This document shows, in pieces, positions 3,231-42,985 of a stretch of 46,026 nucleotides of DNA. The number at the start of each line of letters is the position of its first letter. The stretch's first letter is position 1. Both the position numbers and the translations under genes were made by a program. The notes under the pieces were generated by a model, which searched no databases, was not told the origin of the DNA, and saw nothing but the letters and a program-made list of their open reading frames with translations. Origin of the DNA: Stramenopiles sp. TOSAG23-2 (Eukaryota); the NCBI GenBank assembly GCA_900128395.1, contig LT649284.1, positions 1 through 46,026 on the forward strand. Direction: 5' to 3'.

Positions 3231-5185
3231 ATGGCAGCTTTATTAAACCAAGATAATGCCGATAATAACAAGAATGCCAGCATTAATGGATTTGAAGATG
3301 ACATGCTTATGCTTTTCATTAACCCAACGACCAACGAAGTACACGAAGAATATAGGAAACTAGTACAAAATTACAATGAATGCAAAGAAGAAAAAGATTA
3401 TGCATCGTGGGTTATTCAAGTGGAGAAACAAATTGAAGAAAATCCATTTCCACTTATTCCTCTATGTCAAACATTAAGAACTATTGCAACAAAATTTAAA
3501 TCAACAACGACAGAACATTTAGCGGACATAACATTTGAGAAAATGTTGAATAAAATACCAACAATTAAATATTATCTAAAGCATGTACTTGATTTTGATG
3601 ATCTTTTGCATAAACCAAACAACGTATTTCATAATTTTTATGATGGTGGAAGAGGTGCTGAATTAGGCACTATTAAATATATGGCAGAGAAAACAAGACG
3701 CAATGGACGTGAAGTTATTGTTATTGATCCTCCCGATAGAAAAAGACACGATGGGCTTAACAAACATTACAACAATATTATCAATAAACTACAAGGCAAA
3801 AAGTTTCGGACGGATCGTATTGAATGTGTTGCCAAGTATGTATGCACTGCAATGGGTGGAACTAACGTTAATACAAATGATGTTGATAATCATATTGAAA
3901 AATTACGCAGTTCAACAAATTTTAGTACATTAGTTGGTGAAGTTTTATTAGGTTCAATTGAACTCGGTGTATGTCGCCATCGTTCTATTTTATTTAAATG
4001 GTTGTGCGACCACCCTGAAATAAACATACCAACACGATTAATACGTGGAGATTTAAGTGATGGTGGTCATGCATGGAATATATGTTTAATTGATAAACAA
4101 TATTTTCTAGTTGATGTGATGAATTTTTCATATACATCAACAAATCAATATTCTACTTTATTAATTGCAAATAATAGTAATAACGCCGCTGCATATAAAC
4201 GTACAGGTGGAAGTTTAGGTTTAGAAAGTGTTCGTGGTGGGTTGAGAGGAATTAATAGTACAAAAGATTTAATGCCAATTAATTATCATAGAAAAAATGG
4301 GGATTATATTGGTGATGGCACATTTGGAAAGGTTTATAAAGTGCGCCCAAAAACTAATCAAAATAAATCATATGCATTAAAGGAAATCGAAATTGCTAAT
4401 GCAACGCAGCGTAATAATGCTCTATTAGAGGTTAAAATCTTACAATGTGTTAATCATCGAAACGTAGTAAATCTAAAAGCGTCCTTTGAAGATGAAACTA
4501 GGGATGGTGCAAACGCTTTATATGTCTTATTAGAATTAGCAGAAGATAGTTTACAAGGTAAATTAGACAAGCATTTTAATCTGAAAAAACTTATTGATAC
4601 AAAACAAGTTGCTAAATGGCTACATCATATTGCACTTGGAATGGCATTTTTACATGAAGAAAATCGCAAGTTAGGTAAAGTCCAACGTATTTTCCATCGT
4701 GATTTAAAACCCGGTAATATATTGATATGTGCAAATAATGTAGCTAAAATCACTGATTTTGGTGTTAGCAAGTTATTAGAAGAATCACAACAATCACAAT
4801 TAATGAGTACACAGGGCACTCCAGTGTTTTGGTCTCCAGAATTAAATAACAGAAATTTTACTAGAGGTCATAAAGTTGATAATTGGGCTTTTGGTGGCAC
4901 TATTGGATATTGTTTAACAAATGAATGGCCACATCGTAGTGTAGAAAAGATGTATTCAGACAACCATTTCAATATAGGTAATAAGTTTAAACATACAATT
5001 ACTAATCAAAAAATATATAACGGATTAGTAAATGTCTTTAAATCATGTGTTGGCAATACATCGTGTGGTACTAAAAAGAAATGTGAACAAAATGTGAAAG
5101 AACGCAAAGAATTTAAAGAAATTGAAATTCAATTAAGAACAATATTATTTGATAATATAAAACGAAAAAAAGTTAATAATAATAA

Positions 5186-5222
<37 letters not shown>

Positions 5223-5786
5223 GTTAAAAAAAAGAAAGTGCAGGTTGATAAAAAGATTGCGAAAGATTTGTATAAGAAATATAGAAAAGAATTTCCAAAA
5301 GGTACGCCAATAGTATGTGCATGTGAAAAAGGACGTTTGGAGGATGTGAAAGTATTGATTACAGGCTATAATGATGTGAATGGTAGTAATGGTAATAATA
5401 ATAATAATAATAATATGACATTGAAAGAATACGTGAGTCAACTTGGTAAAAGTAGTGATGGTCGGGAATATACACCTTTAATGAAAGCTGCAATGTACGA
5501 ACATTTCCAAATAGTTAAATATTTGATTGAACGAGGTGAAGCTGATCCTAATATTACAGGTAGTTATGGAAGGAATGCATTACATTATGCAGCAAATTAT
5601 AACAAAAAGGATACAAAGTTGATTGAGTTCTTATTAACTAATATGCCTCTTAATAGCATTAATAAGAAGACCATCTACGGGGACACTCCCCTGGACAAGG
5701 CATATTTATATAATGAAAGTCCAATTCAACAAAAGAAGATTGATCTTATACGTTCAAAAGGTGGAAAACGGAAGAGTGAATTATAA
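3231..5786 (+). CDS. EDR1/CTR1-type transglutaminase-like domain + Ser/Thr kinase + C-terminal ankyrin repeats (intronless)
   Basis: GVCRHRSILFKWLCD..IPTRLIRG..GHAWN..LVDVM (EDR1 domain); GDGTFGKV, ALKEI, HRDLKPGN, DFG, GTPVFWSPE (kinase); TPLMKAA, NALHYAA, GDTPLDKA (ankyrin). Confidence 0.9.
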
Positions 5787-10444: not shown

Positions 10445-12894
10445 ATGCAATTGCAACGTTGTTTATTGAAAAATAAACATATTAATTATTTCTTCTTTCA
10501 ACAATTTCAAAAAAAAAATAAAAACTACGAACAATTATCAATATTCATTAATAATAAAACAAAACAACGTATTAAAAATAATAATATAGTAGCAATACGA
10601 AATTATTTAACAACTAATACATATAGAAACAACACATTAAAACCACGTATTATTACTACCACGAATATAGTCAATAATAATACGAAAGAATCAATTACAA
10701 AACTACATTACAATAATAATAATAATAATAAGAAGAAGAACGGATTATCCATTGTTCCGTCTTCTGTTATTTCTACTAATAGTAGTCGATCATTTCATAC
10801 AACAAAAAACAACAACATGTCGAATACATATCAAATACCAAATGGACGTGAACAATATCAAGCAACATATGAAAAATCAATGTCACCTGATTATTGGGCT
10901 GAATTAGCATCCAAAAATTTTCATTGGGAAACACCATTTGATAAAAATAATGTTTTATCATATAATTTTACAAAAAGTAAAGGTCCTATTTTTATTAAAT
11001 GGTTTGAAGATGGTGAAACCAATATATGTTATAATGCAGTAGACCGGTGGGCAAAACAATTTCCAGATAAAGCTGCATTTATTTATGAAGGTAATGATGG
11101 TGAATCACTTACATTATCATTCAAAGAATTGCAAGACAAAGTATGCCAAGTAGCAAATGTATTACGTGATACCTGTCATGTGAAAAAAGGTGATCGTGTA
11201 GCATTATATATGCCAATGTCATTGGAATTACCAATTACCATGTTAGCATGTGCACGTATAGGTGCAATACATAGTGTCGTCTTTGGTGGTTTTAGTGCAG
11301 AAGCATTAGCAAGTCGTATTATTGATTGTAAAGCAGATGTATTAATAACTGCAGATGCCGTCATGCGTGGTACGAAAGTTATCAATTTGAAATCAGTTGC
11401 CGATGAAGCAATGGATAAATGCAACGATGCTATTAAACATTGTGTAGTATTAAAACGTTTAGGTTCAAAAGCACCTGCAAATTGTCAAACAATGAAACAT
11501 GGTCGTGATATTAATTTTCATGATGCAATGAATCAAATGTCAACTACATGTCCAATTAGTTGGAACAATGCGGAAGATCCATTATTTATTTTATATACAA
11601 GTGGTAGTACGGGGAAACCAAAAGGTGTTTTACATACAACAGGTGGTTATATGGTATGGACACATACTACATTTGTAAATGTATTTAATTATGAAGGAAA
11701 TCCAAATGATGTATTTTGGTGCACTGCAGATTGTGGATGGATTACTGGACATAGTTATTTAACATATGGACCATTACTTGCTGGTTGTACTTCAATTGTA
11801 TTTGAAGGTGTACCAACACATCCAACACCAAGTCGATTTTGGGAAGTATGTGAAAAACATAAAGTATCTCAGTTTTATACAGCACCAACGGCGATTCGTT
11901 CATTAATGGCAAGTGGTGATGAACCAGTATTAAAACATGATTTATCCTCATTACGTATTTTAGGTACAGTGGGTGAACCAATTAATCCAGAAGCATGGAA
12001 TTGGTATGATCGTGTAGTGGGAAAAAGTAAATGTCCAATTGTCGATACATGGTGGCAAACGGAAACCGTACGTAAATTCTATTCTCCTAAACTTAAAAAA
12101 GATATTCTCTCTCTAACACGTCACTCATTCATCGTCACTCATTCATACGCTACGCTCCACAGGGTGGACACATGTTAACCCCAATTCCATATATGTGGGA
12201 ATTAGAACCAGGTAGTGCAACATTACCATTTTATGGTGTTGAACCTGCATTGATGGATCCAACTGCATCTACACCAACGGAAGTGGAAGAAGAAGGACAT
12301 TTAACCTTTAAACGTCCATGGCCTGGTATTATGCGAACGTTATGGGGTGATCAAGAACGTTTTGAAAAAGTTTATTTTTCAGAATTTGATGGATATTATA
12401 CAGCTGGTGATGGTGCTAAACGTGATTTAAATACTGGTTATTTAACCATTACAGGTCGTACCGATGATGTGATGGTAATAAGTGGCCATAATATTGGCAC
12501 GGCAGAAGTAGAAAGTGCATTTGTTGCGCATCCAAATGTTGCAGAAGCTGCTGTAGTTGGTATTCCACATCTAGTGAAAGGCAGTTCAATTTATGCATAT
12601 GTTACTTTAGTTGATAATATTCAAGGTGATAGTACAGTTATGGGTGAATTGAAAAAAGCTGTAAGTGATGAAATTGGTGCATTTGCACGTCCAGATACGA
12701 TACATTTCACAAGTGGCTTACCAAAAACACGTAGTGGTAAAATTATGAGACGTATTTTGCGTAAAATTGCTAACGAGGATTCATTTAAAGCGGTGTTAAA
12801 TGATAGAAGTGAATTAGGGGATACGAGTACGTTGGCAGAACCTGAAATTGTAGATGAATTGATTGTTGGGAGGAAAAATTTAGCGAGTTTGTAG
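10445..12894 (+). CDS. ACS: Acetyl-CoA synthetase (AMP-forming) with a probable mitochondrial presequence; exons 10445-12067 and 12163-12894
   Basis: LYTSGSTGKPKG, FWCTADCGWITGHSY, GTVGEPINPEAW, DTWWQTETGG (completed across the intron 12068-12162) and LPKTRSGKIMRRILRK. The N-terminus is basic, acid-poor and contains SRSFHT. Confidence 0.95.
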
Positions 12895-28619: not shown

Positions 28620-28936
28620 GATTTGAACGAAAAGAATTATTTAATTAGAGGAGAGTGTATAGGTTATTAGGTGTTATGAATGCCCGCTGGTGGAACTGCC
28701 CATGGGATTATGTGTCGTGCAGTGCCGTTGTGGTGCAATTTAGTAAAACCCTGTTTAGGTAAATATTATTTTATTTGATGTGTAATTTATATCTCTATAT
28801 ATCATACAGTTTAATGTTCCCTGCTGCATACCTTTTTCCTTGTTCCTTGTTTGAGACGATCCTATATATATAGTTTTGAATGAATAGAGAGAGAGATACT
28901 ATAAGAAAACAAAACAGATATATATATATACGCAAC

Positions 28937-30156
28937 ATGGCATCTTTAGCCACGAATGACAATGATGATAATAATGAGGATCAGTTAAAACCACCTACAA
29001 TAACAAGGCAACGGTCTACTAACGCAGCTACGTTGGAAGCATTACAAGAAAAACCAGAACGGACAATTATCGTTGGTATATTAGTTTTACCAGCTGGAGT
29101 GGAATCTGCATGCGGGATCATGTTAAATATGTTTCAATATTTGGATATTAGATCATTATGCAATGTGAAACGATCATCTTTGATACAACAATGTAGAAAA
29201 GCATTTGGATCAGATGATTTTGAACGTGTACGCGATGTAGCTTTGAGGCTTGATTATGAAGGTAGAAGAAGTATAAATGAGTTGATACTTTCACATCCAG
29301 CGAGAAGACTTTATTTATTAATTGAAAGATATAAACGAGAGTTTCCACGTGGTACACCTATCGTATGTGCATGTCGATATGGACGTATGAATGATGTAGA
29401 ACTATTTGTTTCTCTTCATCCTTTTCACAAGTATATTACTAATCGTGATGTGAATGGCTACAGAGATGATATGACATTAAAAGAATATGTGAATCAAGTC
29501 GGTCAATATAGTCGTGGTTGGGAATGGACACCTTTAATTGCAGCTGCAACAAACGAACATTTCCAAGTAGTTAAATATTTGATTGAACAAGGTGAAGCTG
29601 ATCCTAATATTGCAAATAGTGTTGGATGGAATGTATTGCATTGTGCATCATGGCGTGACAGAACGACTATTGATTTGATTTCCAAGTAGTTAAATATTTG
29701 ATTGAACAAGGTGAAGCTGATCCTAATATTGCACGTATTAGTGGTGGAATGAATGCATTACATTATGCAGCATGTAATAACAGAACGACTACTGAGTGGA
29801 TTGAATTGTTGTTAACGCATATGAATCTTGATAGCATTAATAAGAAGAACTGCGGGGGATACACTCCCCTGGACTTGGCATATCTTAATAATGATAGTCC
29901 AATTCGCCAAGAGATCATTGCACTTTTACGTTCAAAAGGTGGAAAAGCAAATNNNNNNNNNNNNNNNNNNNNNNNNNNNNNNNNNNNNNNNNNNNNNNNN
30001 NNNNNNNNNNNNNNNNNNNNNNNNNNNNNNNNNAATAATGATAGTCCAATTCGCCAAGAGATCATTGCACTTTTACGTTCAAAAGGTGGAAAAGCAAATA
30101 ATATTGATGAAAATGGTAGATATGTTAATGTAGGACCATTTGGAGACGATTATTAA
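28937..30156 (+). CDS. F-box-like/ankyrin-repeat protein, paralog B (assembled as a chimera of variants, with an N gap)
   Basis: Near-identical N-terminal half to 30641-31621; ankyrin motifs TPLIAAA, NALHYAA and YTPLDLA. The frame breaks at ~29678 and there is a gap at 29953-30033. Confidence 0.75.
29953..30033. other. Scaffold gap (81 N) flanked by a duplicated ~65 bp sequence
   Basis: Run of N; AATAATGATAGTCC...GGAAAAGCAAAT occurs on both sides. Confidence 0.98.
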
Positions 30157-30640
30157 AATAGATTAAAAAATTTTATAATAAGTATGTTTCTCTTGTTAAA
30201 TAATTTTATACAGATGATATGTTTGATTAAAGTGATAAAATGCATACAATTTCCTTCCCTCCCCTTTCATCTTTTTCATCCAAGAAAGTGTGTGTGTTCG
30301 GTCCCTCGTCTTCTATATATAGTCTTTGTTGAATGAATGATGTGCATTTGATTAATATTTAATATAGATAGAGATGATAGCAGGAAGGAAGGGGAAATAT
30401 ATATATATATACCAATACAACACATTCTTCTTCTTTAAAGTCTGTAGTAAAATCAGAAAATAAAAGAAAGATCAACATTATATTGTTCAAATATACATAT
30501 ATACATTTATATATTTTCGTATATTTTGGAAAATATAAAAATCACCACATCGACAAACAAATATTATATTATTATATTATAACTAAAGAAAGTACAAATT
30601 ATAAAAACAAAACAGACATATATATATATATACGTATAAC

Positions 30641-31621
30641 ATGGCATCTTTAGCCACGAATGACGATGATGATACCGTTGTTGATCAGTTAAAATCACTC
30701 GCAATAACAAGGCAACGTACAACTAACGCAGTGACGATTGAAGCGTTACAACAAACACGGGCACCACCACCAATTAAGATTGGTATATTAGTTTTACCAG
30801 CTGGAGTGGAATCTGCCTGCGGGATCATGTTAAATATGTTTCAATATTTGGATATTAGAACATTATGCAATGTGAAACGATCATCTTTAATACAACAATG
30901 TAGAAAAGCATTTGGATCCGATGATTTTGAACGTGTACGCGATGTAGCTTTGAGGCTTGATTATGAAGGTAGAAGAAGTATAAATGAGTTGAGACTTACA
31001 CATCCAGCGAGAAGACTTTATTTATTAATTGAAAGATATAAAAGAGAGTTTCCACGTGGTAAATATAAAAGAGATAATATACCAATACCTATCATATGTG
31101 CATGTGAATACGGACGTATGGATGATGTGCAATCATTTGTGAATCTTCATCCTTATCACAAGTATATTACCAATCGTGATGCGAATGGCTACAGAGATGA
31201 GATGACATTGAAAGAGATGGTGAATCAATTCGGTATCGATAGTGAAGGTGGTGCATTAGAATGTACACCTTTAATCATAGCTGTAACATGTGAACATTTC
31301 CAAGTAGTTCAATATTTAATTGAGCAAGGTGAAGCTGATCCTAATATTACAGATAGTGATGGGCAGAATGCATTATATTATGCAGCAATTCATAACAGAA
31401 AGAATACTGAGGTGACTGAACTGTTATTGGAGCATATTTCTCTTGAGAGCATTAATAAGAAGCAGTCCGGGGGATGCACTCCCCTGGACTGTGCATATTT
31501 TAATCGTGGTCCAATTCGTTTACAGATCGCTGCACTTTTACGTTTAAAAGGTGGAAAATCAAATTGGTTTGATGCAAATGGTATAATGGTAGGAGATGGT
31601 AATGGTGATTTAAATCATTAA
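30641..31621 (+). CDS. F-box-like/ankyrin-repeat protein, paralog C
   Basis: LPAGVESACGIMLNMFQYLDIRTLCNV resembles a degenerate F-box; ankyrin motifs TPLIIAV, NALYYAA and CTPLDCA. Confidence 0.8.
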   Translation: MASLATNDDDDTVVDQLKSLAITRQRTTNAVTIEALQQTRAPPPIKIGILVLPAGVESACGIMLNMFQYLDIRTLCNVKRSSLIQQCRKAFGSDDFERVRDVALRLDYEGRRSINELRLTHPARRLYLLIERYKREFPRGKYKRDNIPIPIICACEYGRMDDVQSFVNLHPYHKYITNRDANGYRDEMTLKEMVNQFGIDSEGGALECTPLIIAVTCEHFQVVQYLIEQGEADPNITDSDGQNALYYAAIHNRKNTEVTELLLEHISLESINKKQSGGCTPLDCAYFNRGPIRLQIAALLRLKGGKSNWFDANGIMVGDGNGDLNH

Positions 31622-40630: not shown

Positions 40631-42985
40631 ATGAATATATTTATCATATTAACAATAATAACCATCATTTCTCTCCAACGAATCGAAGCCTTTGACGTAG
40701 CGACAGTGAAATGGGGAAAAGAACCGATAAAAGTTAGTAGCACTGGACCAGACTCCACATTACCTAATTTTTTTTTCATGGCTGGTGGAGAGGAAGGTGG
40801 AAGTATGTTTGATGGGTACGGGTACACCGGTGGTAAAGGGAATCCATCCCCATATGTACCACCTGATGGTTGTCCTGATGAAATATTTGAAAATACAATG
40901 AAAGATGAGCGAGTGCCACAACTCCCATGGGCATTACAAGAATCATGGGGATGTGAAAGGAAACCAACGGAAGTCGATGCTATTATAATTGAAAATGATT
41001 ATTTACGTGCTGCAGTTACACCTCAATGGGGTGGAAAAATTTGGAGTTTATATAATAAAAAATTGAAACGACAAGTATTTTACAATAACCCAGCACATCA
41101 ACCAGATAACATTGGATATAGAAAAGCATGGACATCTGGTGGATGTGAATGGAATTGGGCACCTGGAAAGATTGGACATTCCGTATTTACGGAATCACCA
41201 GTCTATACAGCTATCATTCCAAGTGACAAAGGTAATATAACACGTGTATGGGAATATGATCGACAAAATAATACCGTATGGTCCGTTGATATTTTAATTA
41301 TTGATGATGTTTTATTTGCACATCCAAAAATACGAAATCCAACCGATGTAGAAATTCCAGGTTATTGGTGGACATGCGTTGCTATGCCAGTAACGGATAA
41401 TACACGTATAATTACACCAGCGGAAGCAAGTTTAACACCATGCACACCATGGCCTGCAGGTGCATGGACTAATCCAAATACTACATTTCGTGGAAGTAGT
41501 CTTGGTACATGCAGGGAGGAAGATACGTGTGCATGGCAACAAGATATGTCATGGCTTGGTAATATTCCACATCCACATGATTTTTTCATGATGATTTCAC
41601 CAGAAAAAGTACCATACATCACACATGTTACCGATGATGGTTTTGCAACCATTCATTCCCATCCAAAAAAAATGAAAGGAACGAAATTTTTCACCTGGGG
41701 ACAATCTGGAATGGGCGCATTTCAACAAGATTTCATGTCTGCATCTGATTATGAAAATCCAAAATGTGATAAACCATATTATGATCCATATTGCGAACAT
41801 TATGAACATGAAGGCCGTTATACGGAATTGCAGATTGGACCGGCACCATCACAAATGCATACATTTCCAATTGGTAAAAATTCATCTTATGAATGGACGG
41901 AATGGTTTAAATCATGGAATAATGGAGATATTAGTAAACTTCATTCATCTCATTATAACGATGCGGTTGATGAGGTCAATAAATGGATGGATTCAAAAGA
42001 AGGAATGTCGCAAACTGAATTGGATGAAATTGACCAATTTATGGAGCAAATGGCTGATGTGAAACCTTTGAAAGAAAATATTGTCTATGAAGGTATGCCA
42101 TGGGGTGGTTTACGTGAAAAATTAGTTGGCCAACCAATCATTGCAAATGGTGCAACGCCATTTTTCCCGCCAAAATATACAGAGGAAACACGTTGTTGGT
42201 TAGATTTAATCGTTAATGGTACATTTAGTGAAGAGACGCTACAATTAAACCCAATTAATTTTGAAATAAGTGATGAATGGGTTGCATTACTACAAAAATC
42301 TATTGCAAATGGACATTCAACATGGTTGCATTATTTATTTTTAGGTACAGTTGATTTGGAAAAAGGAAATGCCAAAAGTGCACGAGAGCTATTCATTAAA
42401 TCATTTACGTTAAAAAAAAGTGTTCATGGTGCAAGAAATCTTGCAATATTTTCAAGTACAAAAACTGAAGCGATTGATTATTACAAACAGGCATGGGATA
42501 TATGGAAAACTCTGGATCCAAACGTTGATGTTGTAGTAGAACGATTAGGTGCAGATCTTACTAGTGAATTTGCAGGTTGGTTAGTTGGAAATGAAGAGTG
42601 GGCGGAATTAAATGCACTGTTGAACGATATAAAATCGAATGGTATCTCTTCATCAATGAAAGAGAATTTTTTAAACCAAGATAAATTATTGCATGCACAA
42701 GCTTGTATAGCAAATCAAAATAAAGATTATGATACAGCAATTAAAATCTTAACCAAAAATTGCTTTCCTACATATGGATCGTTAAGAAATGCCTTGATTC
42801 AATTATGGTTTGAAGCCAATGTCATAAAAGCAGAAACAAAGAAAGGCAGTTCATTGTCCGTATTAGAAACTGTACATTTAAGAAGAGAACTTGGATGTGG
42901 CGGTGATTCCGAAACAACTTTATCCTATAAAAATAATTGTATCAGGGGTCCACCGAATCTAGGATATGCTTATGGTCGTCTATGA
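40631..42985 (+). CDS. Secreted DUF5107-domain protein with TPR-like C-terminus (intronless)
   Basis: Signal peptide; IIENDYLRAAVTPQWGGKIWSL...FYNNP...AWTSGGCEWN, RVWEYDR, YWWT, GTKFFTWG and YTELQIG are typical of DUF5107. Confidence 0.85.
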   Translation: MNIFIILTIITIISLQRIEAFDVATVKWGKEPIKVSSTGPDSTLPNFFFMAGGEEGGSMFDGYGYTGGKGNPSPYVPPDGCPDEIFENTMKDERVPQLPWALQESWGCERKPTEVDAIIIENDYLRAAVTPQWGGKIWSLYNKKLKRQVFYNNPAHQPDNIGYRKAWTSGGCEWNWAPGKIGHSVFTESPVYTAIIPSDKGNITRVWEYDRQNNTVWSVDILIIDDVLFAHPKIRNPTDVEIPGYWWTCVAMPVTDNTRIITPAEASLTPCTPWPAGAWTNPNTTFRGSSLGTCREEDTCAWQQDMSWLGNIPHPHDFFMMISPEKVPYITHVTDDGFATIHSHPKKMKGTKFFTWGQSGMGAFQQDFMSASDYENPKCDKPYYDPYCEHYEHEGRYTELQIGPAPSQMHTFPIGKNSSYEWTEWFKSWNNGDISKLHSSHYNDAVDEVNKWMDSKEGMSQTELDEIDQFMEQMADVKPLKENIVYEGMPWGGLREKLVGQPIIANGATPFFPPKYTEETRCWLDLIVNGTFSEETLQLNPINFEISDEWVALLQKSIANGHSTWLHYLFLGTVDLEKGNAKSARELFIKSFTLKKSVHGARNLAIFSSTKTEAIDYYKQAWDIWKTLDPNVDVVVERLGADLTSEFAGWLVGNEEWAELNALLNDIKSNGISSSMKENFLNQDKLLHAQACIANQNKDYDTAIKILTKNCFPTYGSLRNALIQLWFEANVIKAETKKGSSLSVLETVHLRRELGCGGDSETTLSYKNNCIRGPPNLGYAYGRL

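Follow-up and report, generated by a model that had tools for sequence, protein, structure and literature searches.

An ankyrin gene family with a hypervariable concave face in an uncultured marine protist, probably a stramenopile

This study concerns a short ankyrin module, found in genes of Stramenopiles sp. TOSAG23-2, that combines a nearly uniform coding framework with hypervariable codons on its concave face. The window is the whole stretch of DNA analysed, 46,026 nucleotides (nt) of contig LT649284.1 (assembly GCA_900128395.1, positions 1 to 46,026, forward strand), eukaryotic in character and with a G+C content of 30%. Using gene C as the query in tblastn, we found the module four times in the window: once in gene A, twice in gene B and once in gene C.

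Ankyrin genes in the window and their relatives

The features of the three genes are listed below, with positions counted along the window and the plus sign denoting its forward strand.

3231–5786 (+), gene A: EDR1/CTR1/ARMC3 peptidase-like domain, protein kinase domain and then, after Asn and Ser runs, a C-terminal ankyrin module
5268–5786 (+), ankyrin module of gene A; repeat 2 starts at 5538; Pfam Ank_2, 3.5e-28
28937–29689 (+), first frame of gene B, which covers the N-terminal domain, ankyrin repeat 1 and version B1 of the repeat; ends at a stop made by a frame shift
29563–29680 (+), additional tandem unit of 118 nt within gene B; the 53 nt at its start equal 29681–29733 exactly and the divergent variable part of B1 follows
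29681–29952 (+), P0004, the shifted-frame part of gene B, with version B2 of the repeat and with ankyrin repeat 3
29953–30099 (no strand), scaffold gap of 81 N (29953–30033) and a 66-nt exact copy, 29887–29952 being identical with 30034–30099
30100–30156 (+), last part of gene B, coding for its C-terminus and closing with the stop codon
30541–30640 (+), leader of gene C before the start codon; the sole flank that keeps similarity between paralogues
30641–31621 (+), gene C, an intact member of 326 amino acids (P0002): open reading frame with the conserved N-terminal domain and the ankyrin domain; Pfam Ank_2, 9.8e-21
30773–30940 (+), F-box-like stretch of gene C, amino acids 45–100, with the motif LPxG.E....I......L(D/N)I(R/K)(S/T)LCNVK.SSLIQQ
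31064–31078 (+), hypervariable loop preceding the N-terminal capping repeat, gene C codons 142–146; entropy 2.4–3.5 bits; missing from many members
31235–31291 (+), ankyrin repeat 1 hairpin and helix 1, hypervariable codons 200, 202, 204, 208, 213, 216 and 217; entropy up to 3.6 bits; model helix 210–216
31352–31393 (+), ankyrin repeat 2 hairpin and helix 1, the cassette of the preliminary description, hypervariable codons 238, 240, 242, 247, 250 and 251; model helix 244–251
31463–31507 (+), ankyrin repeat 3 hairpin and helix 1, hypervariable codons 275–277, 279, 284, 287 and 289; model helix 281–287; contains the conserved ACTCCCCTGGAC (T-P-L-D)
31565–31597 (+), C-terminal hairpin, hypervariable codons 309, 316 and 319; model strands at residues 310 and 316

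A preliminary description of this DNA, made from its letters alone, had singled out four versions of one repeat that share framework codons and differ at hairpin and helix-1 codons. All four are where it put them, anchored by GAA/GAT-GCT-GAT-CCT-AAT-ATT at 5538 (gene A), 29594 (B1), 29713 (B2) and 31331 (gene C), and ACTCCCCTGGAC recurs in three of them (A, B2 and C). The codon sets TAT/GTT/GGT/GAT, AGG/TGG/ATG/CAG, AAT/TGG/TGT/ATT, TAT/CGT/AAT/CAT and GAC/TAC/TGC read as listed there; the further set GGT/AAT/ATT/GAT is ambiguous, as B2 has one extra codon at that place (CGT ATT AGT). The N-terminal block that is nearly identical in genes B and C does contain seven differences as reported, over a length of 240 nt (29097–29336) and not about 280 nt.

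Gene B is broken or misassembled in the window. Since 118 is not a multiple of three, the tandem unit shifts the reading frame; at two related loci (L001 and L002) the gene that occupies the same position lacks it. The gap with its 66-nt duplicate represents two overlapping contig ends that were left unmerged; because 66 identical bases flank the run of N, the assembly is unreliable here. Both parts of the gene still match Ank_2, with 3.2e-11 for the B1 part and 2.1e-10 for the B2 part. None of the listed public Logan contigs spans the 29680/29681 junction, the contigs shattering in the conserved framework, and run X1 lacks cover of 29624–29665, which proves nothing on the 118-nt unit. A contig from an RNA library spans 28967–29147 with one mismatch, which is not a sign of transcription. 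The variable parts of B1 and B2 were not found at any other locus, where the best matches reached 85% and 92%. Mutually exclusive splicing of B1 and B2 was considered and rejected, as there is no usable frame-keeping GT..AG pair and the family is intronless.

The family to which gene C belongs comprises at least 344 proteins. That many were accepted at E <= 0.001 among 2410 candidates, the best 120 of them being 55–99% identical, and a scan of metagenome contigs recovered 68 DNA loci. Copies of gene C itself occur at three of these (L001–L003) with 97–99% nucleotide identity. In 12 sources two or three family genes lie in one orientation at a spacing of 1.2–1.6 kb. The genes lack introns, each copy examined is complete with its own start and conserved leader, and 52 of 53 full-length copies are free of internal stops. 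The leader, which stands directly before the ATG of B, C and relatives (28890–28936 and 30600–30640), contains a TA microsatellite (…AACAGACATATATATATATA…CGTA(T)AAC) whose run length differs among copies.

Neighbours of the family genes are housekeeping genes for tubulin, TOR, aldolase, phosphoglucomutase and a proteasome ATPase. For the phosphoglucomutase the nearest named relatives are oomycetes at 52–54% identity, and on the evidence of this single gene the host is probably a stramenopile. The ankyrin module also occurs in other proteins, fused to RING (P0143), MYND (zf-MYND), lipase (lipase_3) and kinase domains. A search of viral contigs, limited to two N-terminal peptide patterns, gave 74 pattern matches of which none was confirmed as a relative. 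In the literature we found no description of the family, only analogues such as fungal NLRs, F-box adapters and designed ankyrin repeat proteins (DARPins). One family member adjoins a TPR-rich protein (TPR_12, 3.4e-176) with an N-terminal MIZ/Nse-type zinc finger (L032, 6262–8058, +), which may be another repeat-based recognition protein.

Place of the variation and selection on surface codons

Variation in the family is sharply partitioned, far more so than chance would give. Across 121 aligned proteins most framework columns stay under 0.5 bit of entropy, while about 20 columns exceed 2.8 bits; some 20–30 columns in all lie at 2.4–3.6 bits, namely 142–146, the sets within 200–217, 238–251 and 275–289, and 309, 316 and 319 in gene C numbering. 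We placed these columns on an AlphaFold model of gene C, in which residues 121–326 form paired helices with a predicted local distance difference test score (pLDDT) of about 85–98. They map to five successive hairpins and to the first helix of each of the three repeats, and in this alignment none falls in a second helix. The variation thus lies on the ligand-contact face, as had been proposed from the four repeat versions in the window.

By its Ank_2 profile and its helix-turn-helix-hairpin fold, gene C encodes an ankyrin repeat protein. Structure searches returned 497 matches in the PDB at E <= 0.001, with DARPins first. The DARPin library of Binz et al. 2003 is said to randomise positions 2, 3, 5, 13, 14 and 33 of a 33-residue repeat. 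In repeat 2 of the family the hypervariable columns are repeat positions 1, 3, 5, 10, 13 and 14, so that four of the six library positions (3, 5, 13 and 14) coincide with hypervariable ones while 2 and 33 are only mildly variable. With its variation at hairpin and helix-1 positions, the binding surface is DARPin-like. The residues found at hypervariable columns are rich in Tyr (16.6%), Asn (10.3%), Arg (9.3%) and Trp (9.1%), with Glu at 5.1%, and depleted in Ile (0.7%), Lys (2.1%), Pro (0.1%) and also Leu. Given this excess of Trp and Tyr and shortage of Ile and Lys, the make-up of the surface is far from what AT-biased drift would give.

For tests of selection we used 52 codon-aligned genes, cut to 48 or 46 by leaving out near-identical orthologues, and two sets of surface codons: 15 codons at DARPin library positions, fixed beforehand, and the observed hypervariable columns, chosen after the fact. 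The median pairwise proportion of nonsynonymous differences (pN) was 0.44 at the 15 beforehand positions and 0.58 at the columns chosen after the fact. It was 0.104 in the ankyrin framework and 0.109 in the N-terminal domain, where the synonymous proportion (pS) was 0.134 and 0.237, respectively. Under a GY94 codon model with a fixed tree and simple codon frequencies, the ratio of nonsynonymous to synonymous rates (omega) was 7.4 at the beforehand codons, with a log-likelihood of -1870.5 against -1899.3 when omega and kappa were fixed at 1 (twice the difference, 57.6). At the columns chosen after the fact it was 20.7; the ankyrin framework gave 0.57 and the N-terminal domain (codons 45–140) gave 0.27. 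These omega values are to be read with three cautions, since recombination breaks the single-tree assumption, the hypervariable codons are near saturation and the codon frequencies of the model are simple; the column-wise results for entropy, omega and synonymous conservation are independent of phasing. The preliminary description had named dN/dS and the spread of variation over a larger alignment as the check on its reading. With omega above 1 at surface positions set beforehand from DARPin design, and a framework that is nearly invariant, its proposal of diversifying selection survives that check.

The third base gives a second view of the same codons. That it is mostly fixed, with the first two positions free, had been noted for the copies in the window and holds in 48 codon-aligned paralogues: the fixed base is specific to the column (for instance T in 46/48, C in 38/48 or G in 36/48), and positions 1 and 2 use all four bases. 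The modal third base is replaced by another in 197 of the 773 hypervariable codons, and in their context 152 of these departures are nonsynonymous and 45 synonymous. The synonymous ones amount to 45/773 (5.8%), against 215/4711 (4.6%) in the framework. As the two synonymous rates match, the neutral or local mutation rate is not raised at hypervariable codons, and the fixed third base reflects low neutral divergence. Only differences that change the amino acid are in excess, which argues for selection and not for local hypermutation.

Uniformity of the framework and the source of the diversity

The paralogues are old. Their flanks cannot be aligned: over 300 nt on either side, identity stands at the level of shuffled sequence in every 100-nt bin except -100..-1 (median 0.51 versus 0.41 shuffled). 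Their coding sequence is uniform down to synonymous sites. Where two genes encode the same residue, the codons mismatch at 0.108, against 0.483 expected from the family's own codon usage, and the mismatch drops to 0.03–0.065 in codons 196–255 and 286–326, exactly where the hypervariable codons sit. The rare codons CGA, GGC, TAC, GAC and ATC are retained in at least 44 of 48 genes. Genes A and C share only 48% protein identity, yet use the same codon at 73 of 86 identical residues, where 44.1 would be expected.

Several patterns point to exchange between paralogues. Among 176 informative framework sites 53–66% of pairs fail the four-gamete test at all distances, with r2 falling from 0.18 to 0.03, and association among hypervariable columns is gone beyond about 3 codons. 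In a set of 109 non-redundant proteins, identical one-repeat signatures in otherwise different genes occur as 2, 1 and 3 pairs, compared with 0, 0.08 and 0 after column shuffling; the proteins P0017 and P0056, for example, have repeats 1 and 3 in common and differ at 5 of 6 positions of repeat 2. Family genes at the same genomic position, with neighbours 99.5–99.7% identical, diverge by 4–5.5% in the framework and by 31–51% at hypervariable codons. In one such pair (L022/L028) the differing block begins some 140 nt ahead of the start codon and reaches the stop codon, exactly the span over which paralogues are homologous. At three loci (L009, L013 and L018) whose tubulin genes are 99.5–99.7% identical, three different versions of the family gene stand between a NIPA-like transporter and tubulin. 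Gene C, in turn, is stable: in four other assemblies it is the same at 30 of 30 hypervariable codons, with 0.6–2.8% divergence elsewhere in the gene (relative to the window or to each other).

We read these data, with a probability of about 0.7, as an inherited repertoire under diversifying selection that is homogenised and shuffled by exchange between paralogues. The ankyrin module at the C-terminus of gene A, like genes B and C, belongs to a very large, intronless and often tandem family of an uncultured marine protist, probably a stramenopile. Members consist of a constant N-terminal domain of about 130 amino acids and a short ankyrin domain with a hypervariable concave face. The diversity would be encoded in the germline, one binding surface per gene, and would be made and kept by positive diversifying selection on point changes at about 20–30 surface codons. 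The coding sequence, synonymous sites included, is likely kept uniform by gene conversion or unequal crossing-over that often exchanges DNA between paralogues, and the same exchange would move repeat-sized pieces between genes. The members may recognise fast-evolving foreign or non-self proteins, a putative immune role of the kind that the preliminary description had raised. The data themselves show the sites of the variation, an omega above 1, the frozen framework, the lack of signatures of a diversity-generating retroelement and the constancy of gene C; homogenisation by exchange, the ligase role considered below and the nature of the targets are inferred.

Recombination is the weakest part of this explanation, and a number of observations speak against it or against the model as a whole. 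Between L009 and L013, whose flanks are 98–99% identical, 11 of 25 hypervariable codons differ, four of them at all three bases, with neighbouring codons untouched, a pattern that fits poorly both with stepwise substitution and with a single conversion tract. Frequent conversion should leave shared donor signatures, though 47–48 of 52 repeat signatures are unique. No exact donor for the L009/L013 or L001/L002 differences was found among 585 proteins and translations, in some of which the 274–290 segment is garbled by column trimming. All related DNA comes from short-read assemblies of a near-repeating framework, in which public contigs shatter and gene B itself shows a duplication and an unmerged overlap; chimeric contigs could partly mimic the mosaics, the four-gamete failures and the apparently replaced genes. 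Direct selection on synonymous sites could also have frozen the framework, as the 73 of 86 shared codons of gene A allow.

The alternative raised in the preliminary description was adenine-directed mutagenesis of the type found in diversity-generating retroelements (DGRs), where a reverse transcriptase copies an invariant template with adenine-specific errors into the variable repeats, giving NNY codons from AAY in an otherwise identical framework. The family resembles such systems in its constant framework, identical nearly to the synonymous site, in its diversity at the first two codon positions, where four bases occur over a mostly fixed third, and in the frequency of Asn at several hypervariable columns; homogeneity also rises toward the 3' end of the gene. 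Of the features that define DGRs none was found: the variable sites are not specific for adenine, the codons are not restricted to NNY, and no reverse transcriptase accompanied by a template repeat turned up in the sequences scanned. These results refute the mechanism, to which we attach practically no probability. Sites with a consensus A are variable in 44 of 138 cases, against 87 of 249 for other sites (32% versus 29–47% per other base; Fisher p = 0.58); 94 consensus-A sites are invariant and just 34% of variable sites are A. Of the hypervariable codons 36% end in A or G (NNY fraction 0.64), and Trp and Glu are found at the frequencies given above. Neither the 24 open reading frames of the window nor 105 flanking ones of at least 230 amino acids at related loci match an RVT family, tblastn shows the four coding copies and no extra template-like module in the window, and the variants are separate, stable loci. 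What stood of the earlier interpretation is the natural ankyrin binder repertoire under selection, without its DGR alternative.

A programmed process other than a DGR could also be imagined, with regulated gene conversion copying cassettes among members or into expressed copies, as in antigenic variation or VLR assembly, so that part of the diversity would not be inherited. The whole-codon replacement at four codons between L009 and L013 would suit it, as would repeat-sized signature swaps, the block in L022/L028 that ends exactly at the limits of paralogue homology, the extra partial cassette in gene B, and an all-or-none pattern in which gene C has 0/30 hypervariable codons changed while other same-position loci show 29–51% nucleotide divergence in theirs. 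Arrays of promoterless or truncated donor copies are lacking, all copies examined being complete; moreover, neutral third-base change is not raised at hypervariable codons and chimeric assembly can give the same patterns. We consider it very unlikely. We would extend equally little credit to a bolder form, a protist immune recognition arm with a dedicated mechanism that swaps whole codons or small patches at fixed scaffold positions and leaves the surrounding DNA unchanged, the frozen framework serving, for example, as homology guides for templated patch repair; its main support is the L009/L013 pattern. It is still less probable that no adaptive diversification has taken place and that the surface is simply unconstrained, with the excess arising from saturation, AT-biased codon usage and assembly errors. 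DARPin library positions were themselves chosen because they vary among natural ankyrin repeats; a G+C content of 30% lowers the ceiling for synonymous differences, and an omega of 0.57 is fairly high for the framework. This reading has to contend with the omega of 7.4 and its likelihood difference, with a synonymous mismatch far below the 0.483 that codon usage allows, with the Trp- and Tyr-rich, Ile- and Lys-poor surface, and with open frames kept in nearly all copies. The mechanism preferred here could, lastly, serve targets other than pathogens, either self/non-self discrimination within the species (in mating, among kin or in fusion incompatibility) or a tuning of how rapidly evolving proteins of the cell itself are turned over. 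Very different versions at one position between nearly identical neighbours are what allorecognition loci show, and the fungal ANK, WD and TPR receptors under the same regime include heterokaryon-incompatibility genes (PMC4986451). Allorecognition usually rests on a few highly polymorphic loci and not on hundreds of paralogues, and we regard such targets as unlikely, if less so than the other alternatives.

The N-terminal domain, comparable systems and other genes

With 64 hits among 1.84 billion representatives, the N-terminal domain is restricted to this lineage, and its partner domain is ankyrin wherever one is visible. Its resemblance to an F-box is weak, and it is probably a divergent one. 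At E <= 10 there are below-threshold matches to PF12937 in 25 of 40 members (best 0.0017) and to PF00646 in 16 of 40 (best 0.04), with no match in gene C itself, and the first named hit in the ESM Atlas is 'F-box' with a score of 0.84, which is below the trusted level and a lead only. A first AlphaFold run left residues 1–120 below pLDDT 50, and a second model of residues 36–140 reached a mean pLDDT of 87.4. Other results count against the assignment: no Pfam F-box match reaches its gathering score, and none of 18 distant homologues matches an F-box at E <= 0.01. A Foldseek search with the N-terminal model found no match at E <= 0.001, five of its 14 weak rows being F-box proteins bound to Skp1, and the best VIA-align Z score was 4.9, not a significant match. 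A profile search of the PDB gave chance-level rows only (E 0.15 and 1.5). The proteins may be substrate receptors of cullin-type ubiquitin ligases, a link suggested by the below-threshold F-box matches and by the fusion of the same module to a RING finger in P0143. In our working model, rated at slightly under even odds, the modules would be exchangeable recognition units that hand the proteins they bind over to ubiquitin ligases or kinases.

Among known systems, the fungal NLR-type receptors (Podospora HNWD/het-e) come close. Dyrka et al. 2014 (PMC4986451) describe near-identical ANK, TPR or WD repeats, for which concerted evolution and recombination are proposed as the route to fast diversification. 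The near-identical repeat scaffold, selection on the concave ankyrin face and concerted evolution as the proposed process are thus common to both. In the fungal receptors it is the repeats of a single protein that are conserved among themselves, and the number of repeats varies from allele to allele, whereas in the present family conservation is between paralogous genes. Gene C does not reach the > 85% identity among repeats of one protein that serves as a criterion for the fungal NLRs; its three repeats differ from each other at most residues of the translation, the high conservation being between genes. Unlike fungal NLRs, P0001–P0004 contain no NACHT or NB-ARC domain (Pfam, E <= 0.01). The constant part of the family is a small F-box-like domain and its host is a marine protist.

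The F-box and MATH-BTB adapter families of nematodes and plants offer a second comparison. According to Ma et al. 2021 (PMC8120010) and to Thomas 2006 as cited there, these are large and tandemly arranged, with the docking domain under purifying and the substrate domain under positive selection, and degradation of pathogen proteins has been proposed for them (PMC8120010). The present family shares the tandem clusters of two or three genes and the contrast between an omega of 0.27 in the N-terminal domain and 7.4–20.7 at surface codons, ligase docking being putative here. Substrate domains of those families are FTH, FBA, LRR, WD40 or kelch, in place of a three-repeat ankyrin module, and they are not known to show a synonymous framework frozen around single hypervariable codons. 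DARPins have a near-constant consensus framework in which surface residues of the hairpin and of the first helix are randomised (PMC8683736). The present family differs from them in being natural, in varying also at positions 1 and 10 and in the capping hairpins, and in its bias to Tyr, Trp, Arg and Asn. Conservation between genes, a small constant head, the contrast at codon scale between frozen and saturated sites, and the host set the family apart.

The theme of diversified repeat receptors has earlier examples in plant and fungal NLRs, in F-box families of nematodes and in lamprey VLRs. If our reading is correct, the theme would reach free-living marine protists, in which defences against viruses and parasites are almost unknown. 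The family would parallel in nature the designed libraries of ankyrin binders, with hundreds of inherited genes that present different Tyr/Trp-rich surfaces on one scaffold, probably joined to a domain for docking with a ubiquitin ligase, and would offer an extreme and tractable case of concerted evolution and diversifying selection acting on neighbouring nucleotides. It is a ready set of naturally selected ankyrin paratopes. As a warning, short-read assemblies of such genomes will misjoin these genes.

Other genes of the window include MEIG1-like, PTEN, LRR kinase, GILT and acetyl-CoA synthetase genes. The acetyl-CoA synthetase-like gene (10445–12894, +) is split into two open reading frames with a 7-nt overlap, 10445–12178 with ACAS_N and AMP-binding and 12172–12894 with AMP-binding_C, which could reflect a frame shift, a short intron or a sequencing error. 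An open reading frame of 784 amino acids (40631–42985, +) matches DUF5107 (1.7e-20) and also, weakly, the SIX1 SD domain (2.9e-07), an odd pairing for a protist. The MEIG1-like ('Meiosis_expr') open reading frame (431–976, +; 2.9e-15), together with an IFT139/TTC21-like gene in a related locus (L008), suggests a flagellated organism.

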